Below are positions 4,813 through 29,202 of a stretch of DNA of 64,000 nucleotides, piece after piece. The position numbers and the translations under genes are program-made. Source of the stretch: Candidatus Iainarchaeum sp. (GTDB taxonomy: Archaea; Iainarchaeota; Iainarchaeia; Iainarchaeales; JAGVWC01); assembly GCA_018304465.1 (NCBI GenBank), contig JAGVWC010000009.1, positions 64,001 through 128,000 on the forward strand, in the 5' to 3' direction. Numbering within the stretch: the first letter of the stretch is position 1; the number at the start of each line of letters is the position of its first letter. The notes beneath the pieces were generated by a model, which did not search any database, was not told the DNA's origin, and saw only the letters and a list, made by a program, of their open reading frames with translations.

Positions 4813-4816
4813 AAAA

Positions 4817-13248: not shown

Positions 13249-13387
13249 ATCGTTTTTTCGAAGACCAAAAAATTATTAATTCAGTTGACTGGTTCAACCT
13301 TTGGATCCGAAGGAAAAATTTTCGAAAAAATCCTTTTCAACCAAAAACCGTTTTTTTAACAGGGTTGATTCGATGTCGTTCCCTTTG

Positions 13388-14191
13388 TCAGTTTCTTTTC
13401 ATGCGCGATTTTTTCAGCGCTTTTGTTCTAGAGCAGCCCATTTCTTTTAGCCAGCGCGCTTTGAGGCTCGCATGATCCTGGAAAAATCCAGAATGATAAT
13501 TTGGATTGGGGCGAAAAATGTCGATTTCCTGCCAAAACAGGCTGGTGTCCAAAAGGGGGCGCAAGCTTGCCGCCGCGACCTGATAGCAACGCAGCCAGTA
13601 ACGTTTGTCGGCAAATGGACGCTCGCCGTGTTTTTCCGTGCTGCCAACATTGATGAATACGCCACGCACGTTCCCTCGAACTTGGTTTCGAATATATTCG
13701 CGGAGCAGGTTCTTGGATTTTGAGTAGGATTGCCACCATGGAACGACAAAACGGTCACTGATTGATCCGAAGGCGCACAGCGTCAGGACGTTTTTTTTTC
13801 TCTTACCCCAAGATTTTGCTCGCTTCAGAAGTGGCTCTGTCAAGTTTTTGAATCCAGAAAAATTACTGGAAAAGACGTCGTCGTCAATGCCATCGCGATC
13901 CGCATCATATTTGGGCCGTCCGGTCTTTTCGAAAAAGAATGGTCCAATGGCATATACCAGTATGATTTCACGATAATGCCGAAGCGGAAGATCGGAAATG
14001 AACCGTTCGGAACTCTGGGAATCAAGAACGTTCACCGCATACAGGTTTTTTTTTGGATCCGCGGTGTTTTGGGAAATACCGACACATTGTGTGTTCGGAA
14101 GCGAACCTAGAAAACGCGAAAACGTTTCACCCATCTTGCCGCGTGCGCCGGCGACAATAACGAGTCGAAAGGATTCTTTTGCTTGCGCCAT
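13388..14191 (-). CDS. Divergent SDR / NAD(P)-binding Rossmann protein
   Basis: VIVAGARGKMG glycine motif, GSISD, YSKSK (YxxxK). Confidence 0.7.
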   Translation of the reverse strand: MAQAKESFRLVIVAGARGKMGETFSRFLGSLPNTQCVGISQNTADPKKNLYAVNVLDSQSSERFISDLPLRHYREIILVYAIGPFFFEKTGRPKYDADRDGIDDDVFSSNFSGFKNLTEPLLKRAKSWGKRKKNVLTLCAFGSISDRFVVPWWQSYSKSKNLLREYIRNQVRGNVRGVFINVGSTEKHGERPFADKRYWLRCYQVAAASLRPLLDTSLFWQEIDIFRPNPNYHSGFFQDHASLKARWLKEMGCSRTKALKKSRMKRN

Positions 14192-14281
14192 ACTTAAATT
14201 CGGTTATCTTCCCTATTCTACTTCCCGTTCAAGCGGTTTTTAACCGTTTAGTTTAAATTGTTCGACAGGCCACTTGTTCTA

Positions 14282-15136
14282 ATGCCCTTGGAATTTGTCT
14301 TGCCATTCGGAAAAAAAAGCGGCCTGAAAAACTTGATTTTCAGCATTCTGGCCAATGAACACCCCTTGCGTCTCATCAACCTGGTTACGCGTATCCGTCG
14401 ACGGTACGGAAAAGAGGTTTCGTTCCAAGCCGTGCGCAAAGCGGTGCTTGGACTCGTAGAGGAAGGTATTTTGGTGCGCGAGGAAAACAGGTATTCAATT
14501 GACAAGGCATGGTTGCGCGGAATCAAACAGTCAGTTGACGCATTGTACGCGGACCTGAACGAGGAAAAAAGCACCGCAAAGCGGACGGAATCGATTCGAG
14601 GAGAAGTATCGATTTTTTCCTTCGATTCGCTTAACTCCATGGTGTTGTTTTGGCAAGATATAATTTCGAACTGGTTTTCATCCTTCAAAAAAGGTGATTA
14701 CAACATGAATTGCTACCAGGCCGCACATGCATGGGAAAGCTTACTTCACTTGGAACGCGAAAAGACGGTAATGGGCCAGTTGCGCAAAAAGAGAATCAAA
14801 AGCGTGATTGTCTGTATGGGCAATACGCCATTAGACCACAACATCATGCGTTTTTACAAAAAAATCGGGGTCAAAATGGTCATTCGACCGTCATTTTCGC
14901 AGTTTGATCGTGGGCATTATTTGGCAACATACGGCGATCTCGTAGTGCAAACCCAGTACCCGGGCGAAATTATGCGCGCCCTTGAACGCTTTTTCAAGAA
15001 AAACAAGTCTCTTGAAGACCTTGACCTGAAAGCATTGTCGGACATCGCCAACCAAAAATGCGCCTTGAAACTCACGGTAATCAAAAACCTTGAAATGGCA
15101 CGACAACTCAATCGTTCGATTATGGCCGTGCCTTAA
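14282..15136 (+). CDS. Putative transcriptional regulator (winged HTH plus effector domain)
   Basis: N-terminal IFSILANEHPL...VSFQAVRKAVLGLVEEGIL wHTH; divergent from the SDR gene. Confidence 0.65.
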   Translation: MPLEFVLPFGKKSGLKNLIFSILANEHPLRLINLVTRIRRRYGKEVSFQAVRKAVLGLVEEGILVREENRYSIDKAWLRGIKQSVDALYADLNEEKSTAKRTESIRGEVSIFSFDSLNSMVLFWQDIISNWFSSFKKGDYNMNCYQAAHAWESLLHLEREKTVMGQLRKKRIKSVIVCMGNTPLDHNIMRFYKKIGVKMVIRPSFSQFDRGHYLATYGDLVVQTQYPGEIMRALERFFKKNKSLEDLDLKALSDIANQKCALKLTVIKNLEMARQLNRSIMAVP

Positions 15137-15179
15137 TTGAAAAAAAAAGCACGGTTGAAGGGATATGACTTTTACAGCA

Positions 15180-15193
15180 TTAGCCCCGGAGAA
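15180..15193. repeat. Degenerate copy of tRNA-Gln 3' end (att-like site 5)
   Basis: TTAGCCCCGGAGAA vs TTAGCCCCAGAGAG at 27332-27345; intergenic; preceded by GACTTTT like sites 2 and 3. Confidence 0.7.
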
Positions 15194-15257
15194 AATACAT
15201 CTGAAACTGTGCAAAAAAGAGTTTCCGAAACAAATTCTCCAGGCACTTGGAAATTGA

Positions 15258-16328
15258 TCAGGGATAAAAATCGATTCGCGGATCAACAAACTTTTTCCAG
15301 TATTCCTTTTTTTCCGTCACATTTTGCGGAACGGTGTAAATATCCGAGCGGAGAGGCTTTCCCGCCACACTTTCTTTCATAGCGCGGGTCGGCTTCCAGT
15401 CCAAGCCAATTTTTTTCATCGCTTTTTGAAACAGATAACATCGGAGTTCAAGCATTTTTTGTTTCAGTTTTTCCTTGTCCAAACCTGCAAGTCGTTCCCA
15501 CTGTGCGACCGAAAAATCAGACAACACCATTTCCAATTCTCGGATTTTTTCAAACGGAACTGGCTTTTTATCCAGCAACACCGCCCAATGAGTCAGCCCG
15601 TTAATTGGGTCGCCCTCATATGCGCTGTGTGCAGAGACGGTATCTATTTTGATTCGCACGTTTTCGTAGACACAAAAAATTTGTAGGTCTTTTCCCGGCA
15701 ATGCGCTCGCTTGAGGCCAAAGTTCTGTTGCCTTTAAATTTAACACTTCTTTTATTGCCAACGAGTGGTTTTTCCCGAATACGTTCGTGGCATCATACGG
15801 ACCGTTGACTTCGATCCCAAAATCAGTGTAAATGTCTGAGTACAACCCGTTAATGACGTGGTATCCGGCCATATACAACCGTCCTAATTGGCGTGCGATG
15901 TCGGGAGTGGCTTTCAAAAATGCGATTTCTTTAAGCATTTTTTGAATTTCGTCTTCCGAATAGACTGAATTGATTCCATCTACGCAAAATGGGTTGGAGT
16001 GGCGTTGTATATTGTTGATTTCATAAAAAAATTCAACCAATTCCAGTCTTTTTTTTTTGCTAATCTTCGCGAGTTTCAATTCCGTTGTGAGAAAGAAAAG
16101 TTGGGTGCTGAGCGCGCTTGGATTTGGAAACAATTTGGCCAATTCTTTCTTGCTCAGTCCGCTTTCGTCGCATTTTTTCTTCAAGTTTGCCAAGAAGTCA
16201 ATCCATTCTTTTGCGTATAAGGAGTGCATGGCAATAAAATCAACTGGCTGAAGCGTAGTCGTATCCATCCCGACAAGTGCGTCCGAAAATCCGTCCACCA
16301 GTGGGTCTAACCAGGCATCATTTTTCAA
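15258..16328 (-). CDS. Hypothetical protein co-transcribed with the PEP-utilizer domain gene
   Basis: Long ORF; TTG start overlapping upstream stop; start position uncertain. Confidence 0.75.
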   Translation of the reverse strand: MKNDAWLDPLVDGFSDALVGMDTTTLQPVDFIAMHSLYAKEWIDFLANLKKKCDESGLSKKELAKLFPNPSALSTQLFFLTTELKLAKISKKKRLELVEFFYEINNIQRHSNPFCVDGINSVYSEDEIQKMLKEIAFLKATPDIARQLGRLYMAGYHVINGLYSDIYTDFGIEVNGPYDATNVFGKNHSLAIKEVLNLKATELWPQASALPGKDLQIFCVYENVRIKIDTVSAHSAYEGDPINGLTHWAVLLDKKPVPFEKIRELEMVLSDFSVAQWERLAGLDKEKLKQKMLELRCYLFQKAMKKIGLDWKPTRAMKESVAGKPLRSDIYTVPQNVTEKKEYWKKFVDPRIDFYP

Positions 16329-16647
16329 GCGCAAACACTTCCCCGGTTTTTCCATCCATTTCAACCAGTTGTCCGTTTCGAAGGCGTACCGTCGCATCTC
16401 TTGTTCCAACCACACAAGGGATTCCCATCTCACGCGCAACAATAGCAGGATGGGACATCATAGCCCCGATATCGCAAATAATTCCGCCCGCTTTTGACAT
16501 GAGCGGAACCATTGTTGGATCAGTAATTCGCGTGACGAGGATATCGCCGTTTTGAAAAGACGGCCAGTCGGTTTTTTCCAGGATGACCTTTACTTTCCCC
16601 CTTATTTTTCCAGAACTTACCCCAACACCCTGTAAAATTTTTTCCAA
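16318..16647 (-). CDS. Stand-alone PEP-utilizing enzyme mobile (phosphohistidine swivel) domain
   Basis: GDILVTRITDP, SHPAIVAREMGIPCVVG, VEMDGKTGEV. Confidence 0.9.
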   Translation of the reverse strand: MEKILQGVGVSSGKIRGKVKVILEKTDWPSFQNGDILVTRITDPTMVPLMSKAGGIICDIGAMMSHPAIVAREMGIPCVVGTRDATVRLRNGQLVEMDGKTGEVFALEK

Positions 16648-16658
16648 ACAACCACCCC

Positions 16659-17408
16659 TTATTTTCGCACTTGAATCGTTCTACGCGTTCCGTCACTGTA
16701 GACGAGTTGAATAACGCTTTGTCCTCGTTGTAATGCCTTGCCTACCGGTACTTTTCTTCCGGTAAGCGCTTCAACGGCATAATCTACTTGGATTGGAATT
16801 CCCTTTTCCCCGCCGTGACTCACGAAATTCAAAAAATAAACCGGAGAACCTCTGGTTAATTCTTTTCCGTGTAATCGAAAAATATCTGCAACCTCGGTCA
16901 CTTGGTGCATTTTTTCTCGCACACGCGCTTGGGATTCAAAACTTGGTACGGATTTACCGGCTCCGTATTGTTCCATTTTTCCGATAATATTTTGCTGGGC
17001 CTTTCTTGTTTTTGGATACTGTCGAAATCGTTTGTCCGTATTAACAAGGGCCAAACTTGGATTTTGAACGTGATGATGTCCTTGTACGTGAATGCCCTCA
17101 TCTGAAAGTTTTGCGGAAATACCCAAAAAGTTGGCTTGGTCTGTTTCGACCGCGCGTTGTAATGGAGAAGCGATTCCGGTATAGAAAAGGCCGCGTGCTC
17201 TAATCTGACGCCAGATGCTTGGATTTCGCTTTAAAACTTCTATGAAACGCTCGCCATGACGTGTTGCATGTGCAAGACCGGGCAAGCTAAGAGGATATTG
17301 ATTTTCGTTTGCCCAACGTCCCGGTTGCATGATGGCTCGGTCATGTCGCGTGACGGCAAAAATTCCAACCAAACGTTTGGAAGACGCAGTCCTCTTTATC
17401 GGCTTCAA
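16659..17408 (-). CDS. Divergent histidine phosphatase (PGM-like) superfamily protein
   Basis: VTRHD (RHG variant), LSLPG, ASPLQRAVET, FVSHGG. Confidence 0.65.
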   Translation of the reverse strand: MKPIKRTASSKRLVGIFAVTRHDRAIMQPGRWANENQYPLSLPGLAHATRHGERFIEVLKRNPSIWRQIRARGLFYTGIASPLQRAVETDQANFLGISAKLSDEGIHVQGHHHVQNPSLALVNTDKRFRQYPKTRKAQQNIIGKMEQYGAGKSVPSFESQARVREKMHQVTEVADIFRLHGKELTRGSPVYFLNFVSHGGEKGIPIQVDYAVEALTGRKVPVGKALQRGQSVIQLVYSDGTRRTIQVRK

Positions 17409-17454
17409 CGGTGCTCACCTTGACAATTTATTCAATAAACCTGCAAAGGCTTTT

Positions 17455-17660
17455 TTAAGGTGCTTTTCCCAACTTTGGTTGAAGCGCCAGTAAAATCGCT
17501 TTTGTTTGTTATTCCAGTGCCGCCATGCGCGCTTCGAGCTCTTTTTCTCGGCCCAGTTTTTCGGCCACGACCTTTGGATTGATTGAGATGCCGCAGGTCG
17601 GACAAACCCTGGTGATTTTTTTTGGGTTACGAATACCACAAAATCTGAAATATGCGGAAA
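17455..17660 (-). pseudogene. Remnant of a zinc-ribbon plus coiled-coil C-terminus, as in archaeal tyrosine integrases
   Basis: Minus frame FRFCGIRNPKKITRVCPTCGISINPKVVAEKLGREKELEARMAALE*QTKAILLALQPK; internal TAA at 17509-17511; no start codon. Confidence 0.5.
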
Positions 17661-17674
17661 AAATTGTTTCGGGG

Positions 17675-18121
17675 TTAGGGTTGAGAATGATGTGTGAGGA
17701 AGTCTCTCGGCGATACGACCTTGATTTTTTGCAATTCTTTTATCTTGAGCACGTTCTTGTCTCCGCTAATTAAAAAATCTGCATTAGCAGTTAGAGCGCA
17801 ATGAAAAAACTTGTCATCGTCGGGGTCTTCTGGCACGACTTTCGGCAAATACTTGGGTTGCACAAAAGCTGATTTTTGCTCGAAAGCCGCAAGCGCAAAA
17901 TCTCGAAATTCAACGGATGCGTACTTGGCGATTGCGTCGCGACCTAACACCCCCCTGATTTCACCCAAGATTTCTTCAGTCGCAAAGTTCTGGATTTTGT
18001 CAGAAAGCAACAACTTGAAAATATTGGCAGGCGGGCTTTCGCGCGACAACACAGCCGAAATAATGACGTTGGTGTCCAGTACCACATTAGGCTTTCTTTC
18101 GGGTTTTTCGGATAACGTCAT
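17675..18121 (-). CDS. PIN-domain toxin (VapC-like, PIN_3 type)
   Basis: VVLDTNVIISA, EILGEI, DPDDDKFFHCA, LISGDKNVL. Confidence 0.9.
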   Translation of the reverse strand: MTLSEKPERKPNVVLDTNVIISAVLSRESPPANIFKLLLSDKIQNFATEEILGEIRGVLGRDAIAKYASVEFRDFALAAFEQKSAFVQPKYLPKVVPEDPDDDKFFHCALTANADFLISGDKNVLKIKELQKIKVVSPRDFLTHHSQP

Positions 18122-18344
18122 TGATTTCTTCCTCGGTAAACTTGTTTTTGACGCCGGCACGCAAACGCTGGAATTCGGATACCAATTTCTGTGTATTCAT
18201 TTTCTTTAAAACAATAGTGTTCTTGTCCAACGGAGAAACCGTAAAAATCGTCTCCGATTCGGATTCCGTGAATTCACGCGTTTTTTTCGGAATAACAAGC
18301 TGGCCCTTAGTGGACATACGAGTCGTTTCAACAATTGTTTCCAT
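18087..18344 (-). CDS. AbrB/MazE/SpoVT family antitoxin
   Basis: TRMSTKGQLVIPK; GGTGA RBS; directly upstream of and overlapping the PIN gene. Confidence 0.88.
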   Translation of the reverse strand: METIVETTRMSTKGQLVIPKKTREFTESESETIFTVSPLDKNTIVLKKMNTQKLVSEFQRLRAGVKNKFTEEEINDVIRKTRKKA

Positions 18345-18402
18345 TCGTTTCACCCTGATACTATTAAAGGACAACCAATTTTTAAAACTTCTTAAAAGTA
18401 GG

Positions 18403-18424
18403 AAAATCTTAAAAGTAAGATTTT
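18403..18424. promoter_or_regulatory. Inverted repeat, probable TA autoregulatory operator
   Basis: AAAATCTTA-AAAG-TAAGATTTT; CTTAAAAGTA also repeated at 18391-18400; upstream of abrB. Confidence 0.5.
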
Positions 18425-18488
18425 AGCCCCGGAGAAAATAACAGGGGAAGAGTAGGAGCCCAACCTCTTTTCGGCTTTTTGTCTTGCC
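18423..18488. repeat. att-like site 4 plus conserved arm
   Basis: TTAGCCCCGGAGAA core; 54/66 ungapped identity with 20943-21008 (hand count). Confidence 0.85.
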
Positions 18489-18545
18489 TTTTTTTTTATG
18501 AGTTGTACGTAAGGGTTTTTAGAGACTTGTGCCAAAATAACTTTA

Positions 18546-19088
18546 ATGGCATGGAAAGTTATCAATTCAAAGTATGCGTTTGACAACAAATTTGTGAAAG
18601 TCAGACAAGACGAATGCCTATTGCCGAACGGGTCTTCATCCGATTTTTTTACTGTAGAAATTCGAGATTGGGCACTGGTAGTTGCGTTTACGCCTTCAAA
18701 AGAAATCGTTTTGGTAAAACAATACCGGCACTCCGCCGGTCAAGAGCTGATTGAATTACCCGCAGGAGTAATGAAAAAAGATGAAAAACCGGAAGACGCA
18801 ATAAAACGTGAATTTTTGGAAGAAACCGGCATGGGACTAAAACAGATAGAAGAACTGGGAGCCTGGTTCACCATGAGCGGAAAAAGCAATTGTAAAACTA
18901 CCGCGTTTTTTGGGATTACGATGGAGCAAAAAGGAGCACAGCAATTGGACAAAGAAGAAAATATTCACATTCTTTTCAAAAAACCAAAAGAAGTTTTGCA
19001 AATGATTGCAACCGGAGAAATCAAAACAGCCCCTTATATCGCGGGAATCTTGGCCGCAAAAGAAAAACATCCCGAATATTTCAAGTGA
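18546..19088 (+). CDS. NUDIX hydrolase (ADP-ribose pyrophosphatase-like)
   Basis: KQYRH, ELPAG....E....AIKREFLEETG Nudix box. Confidence 0.92.
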   Translation: MAWKVINSKYAFDNKFVKVRQDECLLPNGSSSDFFTVEIRDWALVVAFTPSKEIVLVKQYRHSAGQELIELPAGVMKKDEKPEDAIKREFLEETGMGLKQIEELGAWFTMSGKSNCKTTAFFGITMEQKGAQQLDKEENIHILFKKPKEVLQMIATGEIKTAPYIAGILAAKEKHPEYFK

Positions 19089-19106
19089 CCTTGAAGGTTT
19101 TGAAGA

Positions 19107-19868
19107 TTGAAGGCGATCATTTTAGCGGGTGGCCAAGGAAAACGATTCGGAATTGCTCAAAAAATACTGCCAAAATCGTTGGTTCCGATTGGAGGAACGC
19201 CAATTCTGAAAGCGGTTATTGAGGATTTTGCGCAAAATCCAGAAGTAGACGAAGTTATCATTCTTGCAGGGGGAAACCGAAGAATTCGAAATTTTGCCAA
19301 CTGGACTCGCTTCAAAAAACCCGTGGCCGTTCTAAACGTGGATAAAGGCGTTTTTGGAGACCTATTGAGTGTTCGAGACAAAATCGGAAATCAGCCTTTT
19401 ATCATAGGAAATGCTGACAATCTGGTTCTTGCCAGACTCCCAACCAAGGAACAATTTGAAAAGTCCAATGCTTGGATGGTAACCGCAGTTACCCGAATCA
19501 AAAAACCAGGAGAATTTACGGGAATTGAATTTGAAGGCGAAACCGTTACCCGTGTCGATGAAAAAACAAGAACAAGTCAAACCGACTTCGGGGTTGTTGG
19601 CAAAAAAATGCTTTCGCCAGAAGTAATGGATTTTATTGCAACCCAATCATTTCCAAGAAACTCCGGCATTGGGGCATTAACCCAACGCCTTTTCGAAACC
19701 GGAAAAAAAATAGTCCCAATTATCGTTCCACGAGAAAATATTATCCACGTTACCAACTTTTCGGATTGGTGGAAACACAGCAAACGCTATGATTCCTTAC
19801 GCGCCGCATGGATTGCCACCAAATCAAGAATTCCGAAAAGAAAGCCCAGACGACCATACAAACGGTGA
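19107..19868 (+). CDS. Sugar-phosphate nucleotidyltransferase family, divergent, with basic C-tail
   Basis: AIILAGGQGKRF...PKSLVPIGG; GNAD; VDEK. Confidence 0.8.
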   Translation: MKAIILAGGQGKRFGIAQKILPKSLVPIGGTPILKAVIEDFAQNPEVDEVIILAGGNRRIRNFANWTRFKKPVAVLNVDKGVFGDLLSVRDKIGNQPFIIGNADNLVLARLPTKEQFEKSNAWMVTAVTRIKKPGEFTGIEFEGETVTRVDEKTRTSQTDFGVVGKKMLSPEVMDFIATQSFPRNSGIGALTQRLFETGKKIVPIIVPRENIIHVTNFSDWWKHSKRYDSLRAAWIATKSRIPKRKPRRPYKR

Positions 19869-19869
19869 A

Positions 19870-20844
19870 TCATAGGCGGGCCACTATGATTTTGGCAACA
19901 TCGTTAAAACGGGTTGCTGAATTCTCATTGTCAAACCACGCGGACAACAACAACTGGTTCCCAATCACCCGTGTTTGTTTGCCAAGCACAATAGCAGAAA
20001 ACGAAGAACCAATAAAGGCGTTTGAATCCTTTTCCGACTTCAAGAGCTGAACAAGGCCCTTCAAACTTTTCCTGCTTGCTTCCTCAAAAATACGGTTTAC
20101 CTGCCGCGGAGTGGCCTTTTTCTTCAAAACAAATCGTAGGTCCATCAAAGAAACGCCCGGATACGGGACCGTTCGATAATTCACAAAAAAATCCTTAAGA
20201 ACCGGGAAGAGTTTAGGCCCTACGTACTCCAAAGTGCAGGGCTTTAGCAAAATTTCACCAAACGGTTTTGAGATTTTATTCAGAGGTGTATTGTGAATAA
20301 CGCTTGCCGAAGCCGACAAAATTCCAAACTTGGAATGAACGATCTTGGCGACCGGAAGAAAACAATTGATGGTACAAGACCCATATGAGACAACATGGTG
20401 CTTTGAAGCAGCATATTCCTTTTCGTTAAACCCAACAATAAGCGTTTTATCTGCCGACATAGAAGTAGCTGAAATCAAAACTTTACGAATATTTTTCCGA
20501 AAATGCTGCATCGCTTGCTTTCGTTTCGTAAACTGACCAGAACACTCAAACACCAGTGAAACATCTTCAGACCACGGAATTAATCCTGGTTTTGATTCGG
20601 ATAAAAGCCCAATTTTTTTGTTACTTATCGAGAGCGTGTTCTTTCCAATCAGCCTAACCGGAAATCCGATAGGCCCAACAACGGCATCTGCTTTTAGGTT
20701 TCGAACAATTTGTGAAGGAGACGAAAACGGTTCATTAATTTGCACAATTTCATAGTTGGTCTTGCCCGAATTTTTTTCATGTATCCAAAGTCGAAGCAAA
20801 CGAAGCCCAAAACGACCAAGACCATTCAAACCAACTTTAATCAA
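19870..20844 (-). CDS. Class I glyceraldehyde-3-phosphate dehydrogenase-like protein, divergent
   Basis: VGLNGLGRFG, FECSGQFT, GSCTINC catalytic Cys, AWFDNE. Confidence 0.8.
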   Translation of the reverse strand: MIKVGLNGLGRFGLRLLRLWIHEKNSGKTNYEIVQINEPFSSPSQIVRNLKADAVVGPIGFPVRLIGKNTLSISNKKIGLLSESKPGLIPWSEDVSLVFECSGQFTKRKQAMQHFRKNIRKVLISATSMSADKTLIVGFNEKEYAASKHHVVSYGSCTINCFLPVAKIVHSKFGILSASASVIHNTPLNKISKPFGEILLKPCTLEYVGPKLFPVLKDFFVNYRTVPYPGVSLMDLRFVLKKKATPRQVNRIFEEASRKSLKGLVQLLKSEKDSNAFIGSSFSAIVLGKQTRVIGNQLLLSAWFDNENSATRFNDVAKIIVARL

Positions 20845-20930
20845 ACCAATCCCCAAGTTCAACAAAATTGATACGTTGATTCTATTAAAACGGTTATTTT
20901 CACCGACACTTGCCGAAGACGACATTTCGG

Positions 20931-21008
20931 ACTTTTTCCCTGTTAGCCTCGGAGAGAAAAACAGAGAAAAAGTAGGAGTCCAACTCCTTTACGGGATTTT
21001 GTCTTGCC
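20931..21008. repeat. att-like site 3 with inverted arms
   Basis: ACTTTTTCCCTGTT-AGCCTCGGAGAGAAA-AACAGAGAAAAAGT; left arm identical to 24982-24995, right part matches 18423-18488. Confidence 0.85.
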
Positions 21009-21066
21009 GTTTACTGACTGTGCGGAAGTCTTTTTATTACTTTTTGTGTTGAGCAATAATTCATTT

Positions 21067-21098
21067 TATTGCTTAATATAATAAGCAATATTTATAAA
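21067..21098 (+). promoter_or_regulatory. Operator-like palindrome plus TATA box
   Basis: TATTGCTTA-N6-TAAGCAATA followed directly by TTTATAAA, about 23 nt before ATG 21121. Confidence 0.55.
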
Positions 21099-21120
21099 CG
21101 GTTTGGCAGATAATTAAGTC

Positions 21121-22398
21121 ATGATTTCAAAACAGGCCCTGAAAACGGTTATTTCAGACCAATGGAAGGAATTCGAATCCTTAAAGGATTCCGTTCCGCG
21201 AAGCGTTTTTTCCAAAGCCTCTTCGTATACCGGCGCTTCGGCATTTGTCGTCAAAGGCGTGAGGCGTTGCGGGAAGTCCACTTTGCTCAAACAGTTGTTA
21301 AAAGCGAAGTTTGATGGGAATTTTTTTTATTTCAATTTTGACGACGATCGGATAGCCGGTTTTATCACTGCCGATTTTCAAACTTTGATTGAAACCTTGA
21401 TTGAGGCATATGGAGAGAAAAAGACCGTTCTTTTCGACGAGATTCAGAACATTGCCGGCTGGGAACTGTTCATCAACCGGATTTTGCGCCAAGGCTACAA
21501 GGTTTTCATCACCGGTTCCAATGCGAACCTGCTAAGCAAGGAGCTTGGAACCCATCTGACGGGCCGTCATGTGGACATTGAACTGTACCCATTTTCATTT
21601 TGCGAGTTCTTGAAAGCAAACAAAATCGAAGTCCCGAGAAAAGGGTTCTATTCTACCGAACAAAAAGCCCAATTATCCAAAAAATTCAAGGAATACATTT
21701 TGAAAGGAGGAATGCCAGAACCCGTCGTACTAAAAAACGAGGAAATGTTGACCCAAGTATTCAACGATATTGTGCAAAAAGATATTGTCACCCGATACAA
21801 TCCGCGAAAACCGTCCGAACTCAAAATCGTATTAAAATTCCTGCTGGCCAATGTTTCAAATCCCATCACATATCGTTCCATCCAAAGCAACTTTAACATT
21901 AAATCCGCGAACACGATACAAAAATACACAGAATACGCGGAAGAAACATACCTAGTTTTCTCAGTCCAACGGTTTGAAAAAACACTTAAAAAGTTTGATA
22001 AAAACCCGAAAAAAATATATTGCGTCGACAACGGGTTGATCCTGAAGAATACTCCAACGATTTTGGAACGAAAAGGCGCCTTGTTGGAAAACATTGTTGC
22101 GGTTCAATTGAAACGCATTGGAAAAGAATTTTACTATTACAAAAACAAGTCCTCGCATAACGAAGCCGACTTCGTGGTACCCGATGAAAAAACCGCGATT
22201 CAGGTTTGTTACGAACTCACGGACACCAATAAAGAACGAGAACTAAAAGGATTAACCGACGCAATGAAGGAAACCAAAGCAAATACGGGGCATATTCTTA
22301 CGCTGGAGCAGGAACAGGAAATAGAATACAATGACAAGAAGATCCCTGTCAAACCCGTCTGGCAATGGTTAATCGAAACTGAACCCGATAACACGTAA
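21121..22398 (+). CDS. AAA_14 ATPase with DUF4143 domain
   Basis: GVRRCGKST, FDEIQ, TGSNA, LTGR, KIYCVDNG, LENIV, EADF. Confidence 0.92.
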   Translation: MISKQALKTVISDQWKEFESLKDSVPRSVFSKASSYTGASAFVVKGVRRCGKSTLLKQLLKAKFDGNFFYFNFDDDRIAGFITADFQTLIETLIEAYGEKKTVLFDEIQNIAGWELFINRILRQGYKVFITGSNANLLSKELGTHLTGRHVDIELYPFSFCEFLKANKIEVPRKGFYSTEQKAQLSKKFKEYILKGGMPEPVVLKNEEMLTQVFNDIVQKDIVTRYNPRKPSELKIVLKFLLANVSNPITYRSIQSNFNIKSANTIQKYTEYAEETYLVFSVQRFEKTLKKFDKNPKKIYCVDNGLILKNTPTILERKGALLENIVAVQLKRIGKEFYYYKNKSSHNEADFVVPDEKTAIQVCYELTDTNKERELKGLTDAMKETKANTGHILTLEQEQEIEYNDKKIPVKPVWQWLIETEPDNT

Positions 22399-22421
22399 AA
22401 ACTGTGATGAGAAGAAGGAAA

Positions 22422-24257
22422 ATGAGCCATATATTTCAATTCAAGATTCAACTGGATGAAATTCAACCGCTTATTTGGCGGCGTTTTCTGGTCGGAGACG
22501 GGATAACTTTTCAACAGCTTCATGAAACCATCCAGACCGCCATGGAATGGGAGGATTCTCACATGTATGAATTCGTAATTGGCGAACATACGATTATATG
22601 CAGTGAAGAAGGGCATAATTTTGCCGAAGCGGACTTTCGAAAACTGTTCAAATCACCCGAATTTCTGAAAATGCTCGAAAAGCAGCAAATCGGAAAAGAA
22701 GGAACGATGCTCAATCTCAGAAAAGTTAACGCGCTAAAAGAAAAAATAGAAAAAAACAAGCCAAAGCAACTATTTGACCTGGAGACCCCGCTTCAGGCAC
22801 TCGTAAACAAAGAGGGGCAAGAATTCAAGTACAGCGATGACTTCGGAGACAACTGGAACCACACAGTCACCTTGGAAAAAATAATTGAGCAAAAAGACGC
22901 AAAAGAATACCCGATCTGCCTTGAAGGTGCCCGCGCAACTCCGCCTGAAGACTGTGGAGGCGTCACAGGGTATTACGAACTCGTGAAGGCAATGGCAAAC
23001 AAAAACAGCCCGCAACGGAAAGAATTGTTGGATTGGCTCGGATATGAATTCGATCCGGAAAAGTTTGGCCCGAACCAAATCAACAAGACGCTTTCCGACA
23101 AAACAACCCGCGAATTTTCGAATGAAGAATCAGCAAGAGTCCCTCTTTCTCCGCTCGTTCGGAAACTGACCCAACTTGACAACGAAGAAGGGTATAAACT
23201 CGGACAAAAAGAGGCAATGGATATGATGGCCCGCACAATCGATGAAATCGTTCAGGGCGGAGAAGCAATAACCCCTGAGCTTGGAATGCTATTGAATAGA
23301 GAAGAAACCTACAGCAGTTATTTTGCACTAAAAGCAATGCGAAAAATCGGTAGTCCGAAAGCGATACCGCCCCTGATTCAATTCCTGAAGACTTTTGAGA
23401 ACGGAGATTATTACGAATCCTACGAAGAAGCGATGTTCGCGCTTAACGACATTGGCAAGCCATCCATAACACCACTAATAAACGAAATAAGATCAAGTTT
23501 CAAAAAAAAGGAATATTACACCTATCTCGTGGGGGGCCTTACGCAGATTAAAAGCGAAGAAGCCTACGCATTCATGCTGGAAATCGTAGAAGATTACTTG
23601 AAAAACGACAAAAAATACGGGGCCTGGTTTGACATTGTTCATTTCATTTTTGATCTCGACAAACAGGAAAAAAAGGAAGCCATTCCGCTTCTTCAGCGAA
23701 TACTACTTGAAAAAGCGCTTGATCCGCGGCAAATTCGCGAAATAGCGGACACGATCAAAGAGATTGAAGATCCAAAAAAGTTTAAGGAAAGAATCGATCA
23801 AAAAATGGATGCCATCGACGGAGCTGAGAATATTCCGCTAAAAGAACTGTTAACGACCGAATGCGACGTTAAAGCGTTTCGGGAACTCGAAAAGGATTCA
23901 GAAAATTTTTACAAAACCTTCGATACGTTCTTTTTCATGATTGACGTGAGCGTTAAGCAATACCATAAAGTGAACCCCGATTTAACGGACGAAGACGTTC
24001 TTGAAGCATTGAAGCGCATAAAAGAGAATATTTGGAGAGACGAAAACGACACCGAAGTGGAAGCGGTTATAAAGAAGCAAATCAAACAGTATTTGTTATC
24101 CGCAAAACAAGAGGGGCAAATGGTAAGCACGATTGAACTGAAAACGCTGGTAGGAAAGATAATAAAACGAATCAAAAACCAATCGTTGGGGGAAGAAAGT
24201 TATTTGGAATCCATCGACTCACTTTTTGGCAAAAGCCCGGGCAACAGACCTGTTTAA
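22422..24257 (+). CDS. Plasmid pRiA4b ORF-3 family protein fused to HEAT-like helical repeats
   Basis: IWRRFLV, LHETIQTAMEWEDSHMYEF, DFGDNWNH, PPEDCGG; C-terminal AIPPLI/SITPLI repeats. Confidence 0.85.
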   Translation: MSHIFQFKIQLDEIQPLIWRRFLVGDGITFQQLHETIQTAMEWEDSHMYEFVIGEHTIICSEEGHNFAEADFRKLFKSPEFLKMLEKQQIGKEGTMLNLRKVNALKEKIEKNKPKQLFDLETPLQALVNKEGQEFKYSDDFGDNWNHTVTLEKIIEQKDAKEYPICLEGARATPPEDCGGVTGYYELVKAMANKNSPQRKELLDWLGYEFDPEKFGPNQINKTLSDKTTREFSNEESARVPLSPLVRKLTQLDNEEGYKLGQKEAMDMMARTIDEIVQGGEAITPELGMLLNREETYSSYFALKAMRKIGSPKAIPPLIQFLKTFENGDYYESYEEAMFALNDIGKPSITPLINEIRSSFKKKEYYTYLVGGLTQIKSEEAYAFMLEIVEDYLKNDKKYGAWFDIVHFIFDLDKQEKKEAIPLLQRILLEKALDPRQIREIADTIKEIEDPKKFKERIDQKMDAIDGAENIPLKELLTTECDVKAFRELEKDSENFYKTFDTFFFMIDVSVKQYHKVNPDLTDEDVLEALKRIKENIWRDENDTEVEAVIKKQIKQYLLSAKQEGQMVSTIELKTLVGKIIKRIKNQSLGEESYLESIDSLFGKSPGNRPV

Positions 24258-24296
24258 AACCGTTTGCAAAAATCCAATCGCCCAAATTGGCTTGAT

Positions 24297-24900
24297 TTAA
24301 TCCAAATCCCAAAAATCGGTTCCGTTGTCTTGAAGTTGTTCAAGGCGCATCCAGATGACGACCGCTCTGCGCTTTTTTTCAGGGAGTTTGCAGATAGTAA
24401 TCGCGCCCGCGTTCATGAGACGATAGAATTCGCTGACCGTGATCGGATTTTGACCGAATTGTTTGGCGAGTTCTTCGAATTTTTCCCTGCAATCAAAAAG
24501 AATTTCGTCATGGTTAAAACATTTCCGATCACAGTTGTTCCCTGCATAAGTATTGATTGCTCTGACGATGAGCAGAACCAGAGGTTTTTTCCGGAATTTT
24601 CCAATGGACGTCAAGACCCATTTTATTTCGGCATACGAAAAATCTTGCGGCAATGTTTTTTATTTCGGTCAAGCCTTTGTTCGGGTTTTCGTTGACCGCT
24701 TTTTTGATTAATTCGATTTTGGTAGGAGAAAGAAGTTCCTCAATCCGCGTTCGCTTTTGCCCCAATAAAATTCGAATGTGGTTTTCGATGGTAGAAAATG
24801 CGAGTTTTCGCTTGTAGGCAATTTCAGGCATTGAAAACCCCGCTTTATGCAATTCCAGAGTCATTTCAAGCGAATTTATCAATGCATTCTTTTCTTTCAT
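24297..24900 (-). pseudogene. Frameshifted HTH protein (RecQ C-terminal HTH_40-like)
   Basis: TLELHKAGFSMPEIAYKRKLAFSTIENH...LTEIK continues as LPQDFSYAEIKWVL in another frame near the A6 run at about 24655. Confidence 0.7.
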
Positions 24901-24981
24901 TCATTAAGAAGTAGGAAGTTTTCAGTATAAATGATGATAGGATATCAGCCCACGATTTCATAGAACGCTCTGTCGGCTACG

Positions 24982-25029
24982 ACTTTTTCCCTGTTAGCCC
25001 CAGAGAGGCCGAAGAACGGAAGTAATCAG
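24982..25029. repeat. att-like site 2 (exact 14-nt tRNA 3' end duplicate)
   Basis: TTAGCCCCAGAGAG at 24994-25007 is identical to 27332-27345. Confidence 0.88.
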
Positions 25030-25136
25030 CCTGTGAAATTTTTTTCTTCGCTTCATTTATATTACGACGTTGAAAAATATAAATGTGACGTTTTTGATTT
25101 GGGGCTTTCATGACCGATGTAATTTTTTTGTTCTTG

Positions 25137-25967
25137 TTATTTTTTTGGTAGCGAAGCAAATATTTCTTGTGTGAGTTCCTTGATTTCTTTTTTTGGTCTT
25201 CTGTTTCTGTGGGAATAGAGCGCTAGGAATAGAGCGTATGGCTTCCAGAATTGTTGTGTTTGTGTGAACTCGTTTGTGTTTCCGCCATTTCGCTTGTATT
25301 CGGATATGAATCTTGCTTGTTGTTGTGGAGTTAGTTTCAATTTGGTCATAGTTCGCCAAAGTTCAAAGTCGCGAAATGAAATGCCTGCATCTCCGATATC
25401 AATTGCGACGAGTTTGCCTTTGCGTGTTACGATGTTGTCGCGTGCCAAGTCGTTGTGTGACAAGACCAGCGGCAGGCGGGTGGCTGCATGGGTCAAAAAG
25501 AATGTGCGCAAGCGATTTGCCTGTGAAGCAGTTAGGAATCTTTCTTGTTCTAGTATTCGGGTTCTTTCTTTTATCCGGTTGAAAACGGTTTCTATTTTGG
25601 GAACCTGAATTTTAAGGGGAATGTGTGCAGAATGCATTTTGGCGACCATTCGAGCCATTTCTGCGATCTGGCCTCCGGTTAATCTTTTTCCTTCAAGGGT
25701 TTCTCCTGCAATATAATCTAACAGAACAAATGGTCCTTTTCTTAGCAACACTTTTTGTACGGGAACTCGGCGTTGTACCCAAGCATTTGATATTGCTTCT
25801 AATTCTTGGGCTCTGCGTGGATTTTTTTCCATGTGGTAGCGGTACTGTGGATCGGGCCTGTTGTCAATAAACACATGTCTTTCGTTAACTGAACCGCGAG
25901 TGACTTCCCGAAATTGTGGGGTAATCACAGGGCTTTTTTGAACCTGTTTTCTGCTGCTCCTTTTCAT
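25137..25967 (-). CDS. Aminoglycoside phosphotransferase / choline kinase-like protein
   Basis: LDYIAGETL, VAKMHS, SHNDLARDNI, IDIGDAG. Confidence 0.85.
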   Translation of the reverse strand: MKRSSRKQVQKSPVITPQFREVTRGSVNERHVFIDNRPDPQYRYHMEKNPRRAQELEAISNAWVQRRVPVQKVLLRKGPFVLLDYIAGETLEGKRLTGGQIAEMARMVAKMHSAHIPLKIQVPKIETVFNRIKERTRILEQERFLTASQANRLRTFFLTHAATRLPLVLSHNDLARDNIVTRKGKLVAIDIGDAGISFRDFELWRTMTKLKLTPQQQARFISEYKRNGGNTNEFTQTQQFWKPYALFLALYSHRNRRPKKEIKELTQEIFASLPKK

Positions 25968-26036
25968 GGCAACATCAAGAACCAATCACTATTTGTATGT
26001 TTCGAATGCATTGAGATTTGTAAAATGTAACGCAGA

Positions 26037-27268
26037 TTAAATTTTTGAGTCGGTTCCAAAAATCGCGTCTTCGGCTAAGGGTATTTTTTCCAGTATTTGA
26101 ACTACATTAGACTCTCCACCGAAAGCGTGTAAACAGTTGTGACAGACGTATCTTCGTTGGGTGGTTCGAAAAACGATTTTTTGCCGTCTACGATGCGTAG
26201 AAAGACAAAAACAGCAGGGGGGAGAAACGATTCCGATGGCTTCGCGGTAGGCTTGGTTGGCGTCGTCGGAGATTAAGCCGGAGTAGATTTTGATCATTTG
26301 GCTGGATTCGTTTCCCCAGATTCGCTTGCAGGCAAGGGACTGGCTTTTCAGGTTTTTGAGTGCCCAGGTGGCAGCGGATCGGCGGAATTTGGTGAAATAG
26401 ATTTTTTGGCCTTCGTATTGGGAGTATCGGAATCCTTTGGAGGATTTTTTTTGGGCCCAGTGGCCTAGGCCGACTTTGATAGCTAGTCGTTTGAGGGTGA
26501 GGTTGAGTAGTTGGTTGCTGATTGGTTTTGGGGGTCCATTGGTGGTACAAAAGAGAAAGTCATTGGGTTGTTGGCGGGGCTTTTTTCGTACCATTCACGG
26601 ACGTAGTAGGCAAGGTCGGGGGTTAGCAAGACGTTTTCGCGGGGAAAGGTTTTGGATTCAAGGAATGAGGCGGCTACGGTTCCGTCGGAATTGAATTCGA
26701 GGTTTTTTCGGCGTAATCCTAGTAGTTCGCCGGAGCGGGGTCCGCAGCCAAAGCCAACGGCAAGAAGAGCTTTGTGTTGCGTGTTTCCAGCGTTCAATAG
26801 TTTGGAGAATGTTTCGTCGGTGATGAGGAATTCGTCGAGTTTTGCTTTTCGCTTGGGGTCGGAATAGGGATTTTGAACGGTGATGGCGTCTTTGCAATTG
26901 AGCAAAATGGTGGGATAGCGATCGGGATTGGTCCACTTGATCCAGATTTTGATGTTTTTGACCATTTCCCGCCAGGTATGCAAGGAATAAACTTTGTGTT
27001 TGTTTTCGTATCGCTCAATGAGTTTAACCAATTCGTTGGTTTCGCTTTCTTGAAACGGTTTCAAAGGCTTTTCGAATAAGGTGGAAAAGAAGTGTAATTG
27101 GCTGGCTAAGCGGCTTTTTCGGGCAATGCTTAATTGTTTCTTTTTGAATCGATAGTTTTCGAGAAAATCAAGAATCAGAGTCTTATTAGGATTAGGTAAA
27201 CGATTGATTTTGACGAGTTCGGCAGCCATTCGCCGTTCTAAACAGTGCGGATCAAATATCTGGTCCAT
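26037..27268 (-). pseudogene. Tyrosine recombinase/integrase split by one frameshift
   Basis: ORF1 has GPRSGELLGL and SKT; ORF2 has FLF, KFRRSAAT, IWG...MIKIY and a CxxC..CxxC tail; frames switch at GAAAAAAGCCCC, about 26575-26588. Confidence 0.8.
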
Positions 27269-27332
27269 ATAATTAATCCCTCTCCTTTCACATAGTTAAG
27301 AAACGAAGAGAAGACTAATTACTTTCAGTTAT

Positions 27333-27424
27333 TAGCCCCAGAGAGATTCGAACTCTCGTCACGGGAGCGCTCCTACTTAGACATAATCAGAGTCCCGGAT
27401 GCTTGGCCACTACACTATGGGGCT
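27333..27424 (-). tRNA. tRNA-Gln(CTG) with 19-nt intron at 37/38
   Basis: AGCCCCA/TGGGGCT acceptor stem, CGGGA-CTCTGA[TTATGTCTAAGTAGGAGCG]C-TCCCG, GAGAG-TTCGAAT-CTCTC; intron forms a bulge-helix-bulge. Confidence 0.95.
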
Positions 27425-27439
27425 GTGGATGTGGAGGTT

Positions 27440-28381
27440 GATTAGTGACTTCTTGCTGAAGAATGTTTAAAAGCTTTCGTTGTTTTGTCGGGTGCCAAAA
27501 ACCGACTTTTTTTTCAAATCGTGCAAGAGACGAACGTCGTTTGATCTGAAGCGAGTAAAGCATTTTGTATTTCGGATTTTTTAATCACGTGCCGCGGAAA
27601 GGACGAATGCCTTCGGCTTCCAATAAAGGGCAGATTTGATCGAGTATTTTGCAGCTTGTACTGGCATAACGAATCGATCGGGTGCTTGGAATGCAAGATC
27701 CGTCGGAATCAAACAACCCGCGAATGCAGGCTTTGTAAGATCAGTATTTTGGGTTTGGAAGATTCGATCTGGAATAATTATTCGGTCGGCTTTTTTTCCG
27801 CCGATAAAGCCGAAATACGTGCAAAAAAACCAATGGAACACAAATGAGCTGATAGATAGACAGACACATCCACGGCGAGGGTATTTTTTCGGTTTCAATG
27901 CAAAAGTGGAAACCAACAGATAGGAATACAACTCCGCATGATCCGAAGAATCGAAAAATACTTGTATGACCCGCTTACGAAATCCCTTCTGAAAACTCCC
28001 AGAAATCGATCCGTCGCCGAGCAATAATCCGACGATGTAACATAGTTCCGGCGACAGTTTTTTGGGAAACTTCATTTTGTGTCCCGAATAGTTCGCGCTG
28101 AGATAAAATTCTTTTTCGTCGAATCGTTGTCGGTATTCGAGTCGCTTTTCCGCCGGAAGAAATTCGATCATGCGATCGAGTTGTTTGAGCGGAATTGGTT
28201 TTCCTCTCCAAGGCCATTCGCAAACCTGTTTAAATTTCAGATTTAATTTTCGGGCAGTTTCGGTTACGCCACCAAGTTCGTGGCACATTCTTTTTATTTC
28301 TTCTCGGATTCCGTGAGCGAATATTTTTTCTTCGTTGTCTTGGCAAGCAGGTTCAAAAATCGATAATGTTTCGTTTTGCAT
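27440..28381 (-). pseudogene. Decayed two-motif LAGLIDADG endonuclease with N-terminal HTH-like region
   Basis: Motif 1 YIVGLLLGDGS; motif 2 CIRGLFDSDGS in a shifted frame, then in-frame TGA, then KVGFWHPTK. Confidence 0.75.
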
Positions 28382-28503
28382 TCACGGAATTCGGATTTGC
28401 TTTTTTTACGTCTTTAGAAGCGGTGCATCGCCAGTGAAATAGTAAGCATTGCCTCTTGCCATCAAGGATGGCAAAGTCTCTTGAAGGAACCGTACGAAAT
28501 CGG

Positions 28504-29202
28504 CTATTTTCCGTATCTGCGATCTCGTTCGTTGAATTCGGTAACGGCTTGGTTGAGGTCGTTTTTCTGGATTTCGGGCCAGTATTTGTCCAAAAAATAG
28601 AGTTCGGAGTAGGCGGATTGGTAGGTTAAAAAACCGCTTAGGCGTTTGGTTCCGCTGGTGCGGACAATCAAATCGGGAAACGAAAAATCGGAGTACAGGA
28701 ATCGTTTGAATGTTTCCGTGGTGACGTCCGATAATTTGAGTAATCCTTGTTGGTAATCCGTCGCGATTTTTTTGGCGGCGTCCACGATTTCGTTTTGTCC
28801 GGAGTAACCGATCGCGAGGTTGATGGTGCGGGTTTTGTTATCTTCGGTTTTTTTTTCCAAGTCCGTCATTTTTTCTTTGAGTTTTTTTGGCAACAGATCG
28901 GTTTGCCCGATGAAGCGTAACCGAAGGTTTTGGTCTTCGAAAATCGGATTGGCCGCGGCTTTGTCGAGTTCGCGGTCGAATATTTTGAGAAGCAAATGCA
29001 GTTCGGTTTTGTTTCGCGTCAGATTTTCCAACGAAAGCGTGTAAAAAGTCCCGGTTTTAATGGCGGGATAATCGGATAGCCAGTGCATGACGTCCCACGC
29101 TTTTTGGGTGCCCAAGCGATAGGAATCCACCAGGGAAATACCGTGTTGTTTGGCGAACCGGCGGTTTCCATCCGGAATAAACGCAATAGACGAGAGTTCC
29201 AT
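28504..29202 (-). CDS. uppS: cis-polyprenyl diphosphate synthase
   Basis: FIPDGNRRFA, SLEN, PDLIVRTSG..RLSGFL.YQSAYSEL, RRYGK. Confidence 0.95.
   Translation of the reverse strand: MELSSIAFIPDGNRRFAKQHGISLVDSYRLGTQKAWDVMHWLSDYPAIKTGTFYTLSLENLTRNKTELHLLLKIFDRELDKAAANPIFEDQNLRLRFIGQTDLLPKKLKEKMTDLEKKTEDNKTRTINLAIGYSGQNEIVDAAKKIATDYQQGLLKLSDVTTETFKRFLYSDFSFPDLIVRTSGTKRLSGFLTYQSAYSELYFLDKYWPEIQKNDLNQAVTEFNERDRRYGK

Follow-up and report, generated by a model that had tools for sequence, protein, structure and literature searches.

Tandem arrays of genomic islands that share one RNA gene as their target are known from several lineages and offer the closest counterparts to the locus described here, an array of four blocks bordered by attachment (att) sites downstream of a tRNA-Gln gene in Candidatus Iainarchaeum sp. 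(assembly GCA_018304465.1). The window, that is the whole stretch of DNA analysed, comprises 64,000 nucleotides (nt) of contig JAGVWC010000009.1, and the array lies at 15167-27424 within it, its blocks being called A to D from the tRNA outward. According to passages of the paper on the Dehalococcoides ssrA tandem islands, these are bordered by copies of the end of the RNA gene, and half of them lack an integration module (15 islands do) and were proposed to be cis-mobilizable (PMC3146451); the same passages name cis-mobilizable elements (CIMEs) and the accretion-mobilisation of streptococcal integrative and conjugative elements (ICEs). The Islander survey, in the part cited here, counts 125 tandems of at least two islands and 4 of at least three among 3919 islands, an integrase being required in each (PMC4383910). 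Tycheposons of Prochlorococcus are presented in sections of a preprint as tyrosine-recombinase elements with metabolic cargo that stack at tRNAs, successive integrations pushing older elements inward and leaving partial tRNAs and fragmented integrases (bioRxiv 10.1101/2020.12.28.424599). For archaea, sections of a review report tandem integration at one locus and a subsequent loss of the integrase, by which the cargo becomes fixed (PMC8371274). The term 'DPANN' has 0 occurrences in this review; an Aenigmarchaeota paper suggests integrase-mediated transfer in some of its passages (PMC8407114), and among the papers found for DPANN, Diapherotrites or Iainarchae- in combination with integrase or mobile-element terms none describes such an array, as judged by title or abstract.

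The locus resembles the Dehalococcoides and Islander islands in having one RNA target with a regenerated 3' end, displaced direct repeats at the borders and several units in a row. Indeed, the features by which a tRNA island is recognized are present, namely an intact tRNA, direct repeats on the same strand and a tyrosine recombinase gene, frameshifted, next to an att site. On the other hand, the Dehalococcoides recombinase is the serine recombinase DsiB, whereas the window has an archaeal tyrosine integrase and smaller blocks (2.3-4 kb), and unlike the tandem members counted by Islander the blocks do not each carry an integrase, since B and C have none and D a relic only. Like CIMEs, blocks B and C are att-flanked segments devoid of integrase and transfer genes, placed in tandem at one site with an element that bears an integrase, and their P' arms resemble those of integrase-bearing relatives; they differ from the streptococcal CIMEs by the absence of conjugation genes, the archaeal host and the broken local integrase. 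Tycheposons belong to another domain of life and another integrase family, Pfam finds no replication module at the present locus, and the mobility of its blocks is putative. In the SSV-type (class I) mechanism the integrase gene is split at an internal att site on integration; in the window, by contrast, the att core lies outside the integrase gene, 64 nt upstream, and the gene is unsplit and collinear with its relatives. Archaeal integrated elements and 'gene capture' are reportedly the subject of She et al. 2001.

An earlier note on this DNA had likened the blocks to the gene cassettes of an integron. As in an integron, one platform gathers successive units at one end beside an integrase. 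However, the blocks have 2 to 5 genes each, in both directions, in place of promoterless single-ORF (open reading frame) cassettes pointing one way; there is no attI and no attC hairpin, the sites come from a tRNA, and the integrase, probably not of the integron type, has archaeal pleomorphic-virus integrases as its closest virus-borne relatives (24-27% identity). The term 'integron-like gene cassettes' is therefore not supported. Nor is the principle new, since integrase-less tandem accretion in bacteria (passages of PMC3146451) and tandem integration with integrase loss in archaea (sections of PMC8371274) have been described. The locus probably exemplifies an established mode of stacking of integrase-carrying elements at a single tRNA, in a lineage that has received little study, and is by now mostly decayed.

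The target is an intact tRNA-Gln(CUG) at one end of the island, the sole tRNA gene of the window, which covers the whole RF00005 model (1-71). In the Rfam alignment its anticodon loop reads C-U-C-U-G (CU-CUG), with 19 extra bases after position 37. ARAGORN names this gene Ile or Glu, which we rejected as miscalls. More generally, intron-bearing tRNA-Gln(CUG) genes (27333-27424 of the window; L056:4891-4980 in a relative) are misnamed Ile, Glu, Ser, Lys or Pyl by this program depending on its mode, and automatic annotation of these genomes may overlook the link to tRNA-Gln because of it.

Reverse-complemented, the last 13 bases of this tRNA and one more give the recurring motif TTAGCCCCAGAGAG, which takes in the 3' strands of the T stem and of the acceptor, then the discriminator and an extra base. 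With up to two mismatches allowed it matches five places in the window, all on the + strand: 27332 and 24994 (no mismatch), 20943, 18423 and 15180 (2 each). The chance expectation is 0.10, and five or more matches were obtained in 0 of 100 shuffles. Over both strands of the whole genome (1,246,008 bases) there are six matches, five being the array sites and the sixth lying at C7:114769 with 2 mismatches. Scored with a 32-nt weight matrix built from them, the five sites reach 32.7-39.6 bits, and no other place in the genome exceeds 17.7; as the matrix was trained on these very sites, only the gap between the scores is informative. The scan revealed no sixth att site in the genome, and a candidate to the left of 15180 was likewise rejected. 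Internal sites are all situated between long ORFs, and successive sites are 2338, 4051, 2520 and 3243 bases apart (blocks A to D, 12.2 kb in total).

That these repeats are regulatory or terminator elements, or chance matches, and not recombination sites, is very improbable. Site 20943 does have a terminator-like hairpin followed by a T run in its arm, and every site precedes a gene on the strand of the tRNA. Against this stand one 14/14 and three 12/14 copies in a single orientation within 12 kb of the tRNA and an integrase, with only one further match in 1.25 Mb; moreover, promoter-like and terminator-like counts do not exceed those of shuffles. When the four internal sites were folded as single-stranded DNA, only 20943 did better than its shuffles (z -2.7 and -4.0, against 0.0, -0.06 and -1.4 for the others), and the sites are thus not attC-like hairpins.

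The arms of the sites carry further information. Sites 18423 and 20943, whose right arms would be the P arms of C and B, are 81% alike over 70 nt, made up of the core and 56 nt upstream of it (in the direction of the tRNA). The left arms of 20943 and 24994, which would be the P' arms of the same two blocks, agree at 93% over 27 nt. Sites 20943 and 24994 also have in common CAGGGAAAAAGTC, the 13 nt downstream of the core (in the direction of the tRNA), and an exact stretch of 18 bases links 15180 with 18423. The pattern AAAGT..TAG(T/C)C recurs in the downstream arms of A, B and C, at the distal site and in the flanks that follow tRNA-Gln in two relatives (L013 and L014). A dyad, ACTTTTTCTCTG / CAGGGAAAAAGT, surrounds the core of 20943, an arrangement that would suit a recombinase core site. 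The cores at 15180, 18423 and 20943 have a C where the tRNA of the window has a T, exactly as the tRNA-Gln ends of the relatives G015 and G017 do, which is expected if they are attP-derived sequence. Judging from these arms, blocks B and C probably represent one attP type on both sides, though their genes are unrelated.

The integrase gene of block A begins 64 nt past tRNA-Gln, with the att core upstream of its start. Its two ORFs align end to end with three intact relatives (P0004, P0005 and P0007; 411-424 amino acids, 66-69% identity) and are collinear with them from residue 1; the frame change near codon 240 lies outside any homopolymer run, and contigs of four other sequencing runs have no indel relative to the window. 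Alone, the N-terminal part scores 19.3 bits on PF00589, under the cut-off of 27.1, a domain that the intact relatives do carry, and P0004 matches PHROG 1 'integrase' at 2.7e-15. The alignment shows what we take to be the box I Arg, the Lys, the RR box and the Tyr-containing motif. The family is divergent. A profile of its alignment had 0 matches among PDB sequences, and the alignment had none in the metagenome and viral contig collections scanned; in genome contigs it matched only L013 and L014. Both of these integrases lie 60-70 nt after a tRNA-Gln gene, an intron-bearing tRNA-Gln(CUG) in L013, from a genome of the same family, and tRNA-Gln(UUG) in L014 (Candidatus Iainarchaeum). A second copy of the tRNA end was found neither within 11 kb in L014 nor in the 4974 bases of L013. 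The L014 gene has an in-frame TGA (10673-10675) at a conserved Trp codon, so this copy is also dead. This TGA falls about 8 codons before the place of the window's frameshift; the nearness of these two independent breaks is probably due to chance.

On contig C15 the genome of the window also encodes a paralogue that is intact. Its start is preceded, at a distance of 66 nt, by a 12/12 match to the 3' end of tRNA-Gln(UUG), which is oriented the other way round from the arrangement in block A. The tRNA-Gln(UUG) gene itself, followed by a gene for a MazE-like antitoxin, lies 800 nt short of one end of contig C1, and a second element may extend across the ends of C1 and C15.

Searched with a profile built from four intact integrases, the six frames of the window yielded one place beyond block A, 17479-17640 on the - strand, which matches profile positions 365-414 weakly (independent E 0.043). 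The translation of this segment (stops read as X) aligns collinearly with the integrase tail, which comprises a zinc ribbon and a coiled coil. Its Smith-Waterman scores are 67 (C15 integrase) and 56 (P0005), values reached by 0 of 500 shuffles each, and 45 (P0004) and 41 (P0007), reached by 5 and 6 of 500. On this similarity we accept about 17470-17655 as an integrase relic: block D once had an integrase, most of which is now replaced by a toxin-antitoxin pair. This relic indicates that loss of the integrase does occur at the array. Blocks B and C gave no integrase trace, either by tblastn (E up to 10) or in the six-frame profile search.

Much of what the earlier note had read from the letters stood up to this scrutiny. 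Its tRNA-Gln, its block sizes of about 2.3, 4.05, 2.5 and 3.2 kb and the recurrence of the tRNA end downstream, intergenic and in one orientation (four + strand copies, 14/14 to 12/14), were all recovered, and the motif, which it wished to see compared with the rest of the genome, is not as common elsewhere. Copies of the tRNA end of which one in four folds better than shuffles agree with its view of double-stranded, tRNA-derived att-type sites as opposed to attC hairpins. The distribution of integrases is also as proposed (one in A, frameshifted; none detectable in B and C; a C-terminal relic in D), as is the lack of a working integrase in three blocks; the existence of a tRNA-Gln-specific tyrosine integrase family supports stacking at one tRNA, and the naming of its members (Candidatus Iainarchaeum and Diapherotrites) supports a DPANN host. 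What is not supported is the idea that the blocks were non-autonomous from the beginning, for the relic in block D means that at least one of them once had its own integrase.

Comparison with relatives places the array in an insertion hotspot. From tRNA-Gln to the geranylgeranyl reductase-like gene the window has 22,904 nt, against about 36 (L020), 579 (L017), 2017 (L015) and 2356 nt (L019) in four relatives, in all of which the reductase homologue is convergent with tRNA-Gln. On the other side, the prenyltransferase gene lies 44-58 nt from tRNA-Gln(CUG) in L013, L017, L019, L020, L054 and L056. Of a larger variable region, the array is thus the tRNA-proximal half, the one that can still be recognised.

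Since the genome was assembled from a metagenome, in 15 contigs, and the repeats reach 70 nt, a chimera joined at short repeats by assembly or binning has to be considered; we give it almost no credence. The stretch is present in eleven runs, and contigs of four of them (X5, X6, X8 and X10) cover all blocks (11500-31000), with 0 letters differing from the window in the pieces listed. Every site is bridged by such identical contigs with at least 31 nt on each side (15180 and 20943 by X5 and X6, 18423 by X10, 24994 and the tRNA by X5), and the array is therefore not an assembly artefact of this genome alone. The earlier note had also suggested looking for joints of circles or skipped blocks, as signs of cassette movement. 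No joint indicating a circle, a deletion, a skipped block or a reordering at the cores was seen in the contigs of the four runs, a weak negative since assembled contigs, on which the comparison was made, drop rare variants; these data say only that the consensus array is identical in several samples. Two signals were discarded: word shares from 0.94 to 0.22, suggestive of missing blocks, reflect low and patchy coverage of all blocks, and the joints 14120/15911 (side 22) and 17077/19574 (37 foreign letters) are away from the att cores and look like foreign contigs.

We consider it probable, and the simplest account, that the array arose by tandem accretion through serial site-specific integration, followed by decay. 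A family of archaeal tyrosine integrases of about 420 amino acids would target the 3' part of tRNA-Gln genes, and small integrative elements would have inserted one after another into tRNA-Gln(CUG). At each insertion the attP of the element would recombine with the T-stem/acceptor end of the tRNA, which would be rebuilt from element DNA, while the displaced copy of the tRNA end and all earlier elements would be pushed further downstream. Block A would thus be the youngest and block D the oldest, and each internal site would be a hybrid of the P arm of the nearer element, the core and the P' arm of the farther one. Decay would then have frameshifted the integrase of A, left the relic of D beside its toxin-antitoxin pair and reduced B and C to cargo and att arms. 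The repeats and their arms, the integrase family with its linkage to tRNA-Gln, the relic and the hotspot are observed features of the locus, and the arm likenesses (81% over 70 nt, 93% over 27 nt) are as serial integration predicts. Decay also varies with position, the core being 14/14 at the nearest internal site and 12/14 at the three farther ones, and the integrase frameshifted in A and a relic in D. The wide gap between tRNA-Gln and the reductase gene, the extra tRNA-Gln ends in other genomes of the order, the patchy occurrence of the cargo and the lower GC content of the array speak for this scenario as well. From these features we infer the order of events, the crossover region and an entry of B and C either with integrases since lost or with help. 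The array looks fixed and its mechanism ordinary for tRNA islands.

Several observations weigh against this scenario. Blocks B and C keep both att arms and have no integrase trace, and two clean, independent losses are unparsimonious; only 18 nt separate the core of block C from its first start codon, too few to harbour any remains. The borders are also ill-marked. The GC content is 0.40-0.45 over the array against about 0.50 further out, yet low values (0.40-0.46) run from about 12500 to about 30500, past both array ends and over the conserved prenyltransferase gene, so composition alone gives no island borders. The true end of the array would not be defined by its last site either, the flank past 15180 being P'-arm-like and low in GC on to about 12500.

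The other genomes of the order, 195 in number and none of the same genus, bear on the scenario in two ways. In agreement with it, at least six of them have extra copies of the tRNA-Gln 3' end just downstream of the tRNA, a lower bound since BLAST detected copies from about 20 nt upward and missed short cores. The copies lie at 49 and 167 nt (G015), 93 nt (G020), 118 nt (G110), about 930 nt (G100) and about 1140 nt (G018). G104 has two stacked units of about 110 nt (L054:791-1003) and G110 one (L055:1076-1186), both after tRNA-Gln(CUG). The blocks of G018 and G100 (0.9-1.1 kb) hold two small overlapping toxin-antitoxin-like ORFs each and nothing else, and the small units (about 50-120 nt; G104, G110, G015 and G020) consist of hairpin-rich arms and the last 21 nt of the tRNA. 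Those of G104 and G110 (about 100-110 nt) have one or two perfect hairpins each and may be elements with internal deletions, or else miniature elements made of att alone; their core-adjacent (P) arm is nearly identical although the two genomes belong to different families. Four queries of the block A integrase family had 0 matches at E 1e-3 in the six loci, which are 1.7-14.5 kb long. Mini-units of 49 to about 1140 nt without a family integrase, however, are not obviously predicted by simple decay, and this weighs against the scenario.

These same observations favour a reading in which B, C and perhaps the mini-units of relatives never had an integrase and were moved, like CIMEs or cassettes, by an enzyme encoded elsewhere, for which an A-type element or the intact C15 paralogue would be candidates. 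The integration chemistry would be alike in both cases and only the supplier of the enzyme would differ. We regard this possibility as rather unlikely, though it accounts well for the unrelated cargo of B and C between like att arms without any integrase trace, for the att-bounded toxin-antitoxin blocks of G018 and G100, for the small units with a P arm common to two families, and for the presence of an intact 426-amino-acid paralogue in the same genome. The pair of genes of block C, moreover, recurs in another genome after a tRNA-Leu (see below). Conversely, the relic of block D means that integrases are lost at the array itself; the local integrase is broken, and the C15 paralogue is just 45% identical and lies by a core of the tRNA-Gln(UUG) type. 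Neither the metagenome nor the viral collections scanned gave a match to the integrase family, and the silence of the four runs' contigs as to circles, deletions and reordering also counts against it, weakly for the reason given above. Finally, the 91-nt att of B and C at site 20943 has no credible match in the 195 genomes: marginal matches of 20-40 nt (E 0.0016 or worse) in 8 of them were treated as noise, and four exact metagenome matches to a 19-mer of the P' arm have unrelated flanks and were put down to chance. Other cargo with this type of att was thus not met with in these 195 genomes.

Extended to the order as a whole, this alternative would make tRNA-Gln of Iainarchaeales a platform at which a dedicated tyrosine integrase family inserts and exchanges integrase-less, att-flanked units in trans, from 'empty' arm pairs of about 100 nt through toxin-antitoxin pairs to metabolic or defence modules of 2-4 kb. 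Such a platform appears doubtful. If it existed, it would be the functional analogue of an integron that uses double-stranded sites of tRNA origin, and would bring metabolic genes to DPANN archaea with their reduced genomes.

As to the cargo (Table 1), most of the labels given by the earlier note (kinase, HTH, pRiA4b, ATPase, GAPDH, NTP-transferase, NUDIX, toxin-antitoxin) agree with Pfam; 'phospho-His' does not, the 249-amino-acid ORF of block D having no family and only a visible RHGE motif. This ORF, its 394-amino-acid neighbour and three ORFs at 12499-15136 have no Pfam, NCBIfam or PHROGs family; the two block D ORFs also lack a PADLOC match, and Atlas gave nothing usable for the longer one. 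A 74-amino-acid ORF lies between the PIN_3 toxin and the 249-amino-acid ORF. The GAPDH-like protein of block C has a single close relative (67% identity) among the 195 genomes, 90 others having only 27-36% matches, presumably to the housekeeping enzyme. In the genome with the close relative (G113), it stands again with a convergent NTP-transferase (74%; L042:4973-6876), directly after tRNA-Leu(UAG) and a 26-nt fragment resembling the 3' end of another tRNA-Leu; the 10.8-kb contig contains no second copy of this fragment. The PRiA4 protein of block B has partial matches in 3 of the 195 genomes.

Table 1. Features of the array and its surroundings. Positions are those of the window unless a contig is named.
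Feature	Position	Strand	Evidence and remarks
Geranylgeranyl reductase-like gene, conserved distal flank	3280-4428	+	Pfam
Remaining variable gap	4429-15179		MGMT-like, DAHP-synthase-family, 629- and 1252-amino-acid proteins, three ORFs without family; no att site recognisable by weight-matrix scan; GC mixed
Att site 5, most distal recognisable	15167-15197	-	Core 15180-15193, 12/14
Block D, 3.2 kb	15194-18422	-	Pfam, NCBIfam
Block D, 394-amino-acid ORF, no family	15258-16442	-	Pfam, NCBIfam, PHROGs, PADLOC
Block D, 249-amino-acid ORF, no family	16659-17408	-	Pfam, NCBIfam, PHROGs, PADLOC
Block D, integrase C-terminal relic	about 17470-17655	-	In-frame stops
Block D, PIN_3 toxin	17675-18160	-	Pfam/NCBIfam
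Block D, AbrB-like, 95 amino acids	18087-18374	-	Overlaps PIN_3 toxin
Att site 4	18423-18492	-	Core 18423-18436, 12/14; plus 56-nt right arm
Block C, 2.5 kb, without integrase	18437-20942	both	
Block C, NUDIX hydrolase	18546-19088	+	Pfam
Block C, NTP-transferase (nucleotidyl transferase)	19107-19868	+	Pfam
Block C, divergent GAPDH-like dehydrogenase	19870-20925	-	185 bits on type I model, cut-off 367
Att site 3	20930-21012	-	Core 20943-20956, 12/14; right arm 56 nt, 81% to site 4
Block B, 4.05 kb, without integrase	20957-24993	both	Pfam
Block B, AAA_14/DUF4143 ATPase	21121-22398	+	Pfam; PADLOC candidate defence family PDC-S01, 353 bits
Block B, PRiA4_ORF3+HEAT protein	22404-24257	+	Pfam
Block B, 143-amino-acid ORF, no assigned family	24264-24695	+	
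Block B, HTH_40 protein	24529-24900	-	Pfam
Att site 2	24981-25007	-	Core 24994-25007, 14/14 to tRNA end; left arm GACTTTTTCCCTG common with site 3 (93%)
Block A, kinase, APH/choline-kinase family	25137-25985	-	PF01636 51.8 bits, PF01633 34.8 bits
Block A, integrase pseudogene	26037-27268	-	Overlapping ORFs 26483-27268 (261 amino acids) and 26037-26594 (185 amino acids), frameshift near codon 240
tRNA 3' end, proximal att core, attL type	27333-27345	-	tRNA sequence
tRNA-Gln(CUG)	27333-27424	-	Rfam RF00005, 50.6 bits; 19-nt intron at canonical position
Undecaprenyl-diphosphate-synthase-family (prenyltransferase) gene, conserved proximal flank	28504-29202	-	PF01255 210 bits
Intact integrase paralogue, 426 amino acids	C15:2593-4077, - strand (= L052)		45% identical; PF00589 33 bits, cut-off 27.1

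Two observations were made beside the array. In six relatives just 44-58 nt separate tRNA-Gln from the prenyltransferase gene; in the window this interval holds a 266-amino-acid ORF (27581-28381, - strand) for which Pfam gives only a weak HTH match and which looks, from Atlas features (0.93) and a structure TM of 0.77, like a free-standing LAGLIDADG homing-endonuclease-like protein. Its paralogues in the same genome are at C13:164426-165043 and C15:279484-279879, one of them about 290 nt upstream of an intron-bearing tRNA-Leu(CAG), and a 38% homologue lies upstream of an intron-bearing tRNA-Gln in G110 (L055:52-657); a link of this family to tRNA introns or tRNA loci is possible. Furthermore, the last 14 bases of a tRNA-Glu(UUC) on contig C12 (14098 and 15109-15183; L051) recur on the same strand, with 1 mismatch, some 1 kb further downstream, and this repeat pair encloses a 258-amino-acid ORF that belongs to no known family.

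DPANN archaea, whose genomes are very small, presumably depend on the transfer of genes by vehicles that are poorly known. For the tiny groundwater archaeon considered here, the locus offers a concrete vehicle of this kind, a tRNA-Gln-specific integrase family together with a hotspot that ranges from tens of bases in relatives to 22.9 kb in the window. Among the genes gained at this hotspot are those for a GAPDH-like dehydrogenase and the nucleotidyl transferase that accompanies it, for a candidate defence ATPase and a kinase, and for the two partners of a toxin-antitoxin pair, and the locus supplies defined att sequences and intact natural integrases for a recombination assay.

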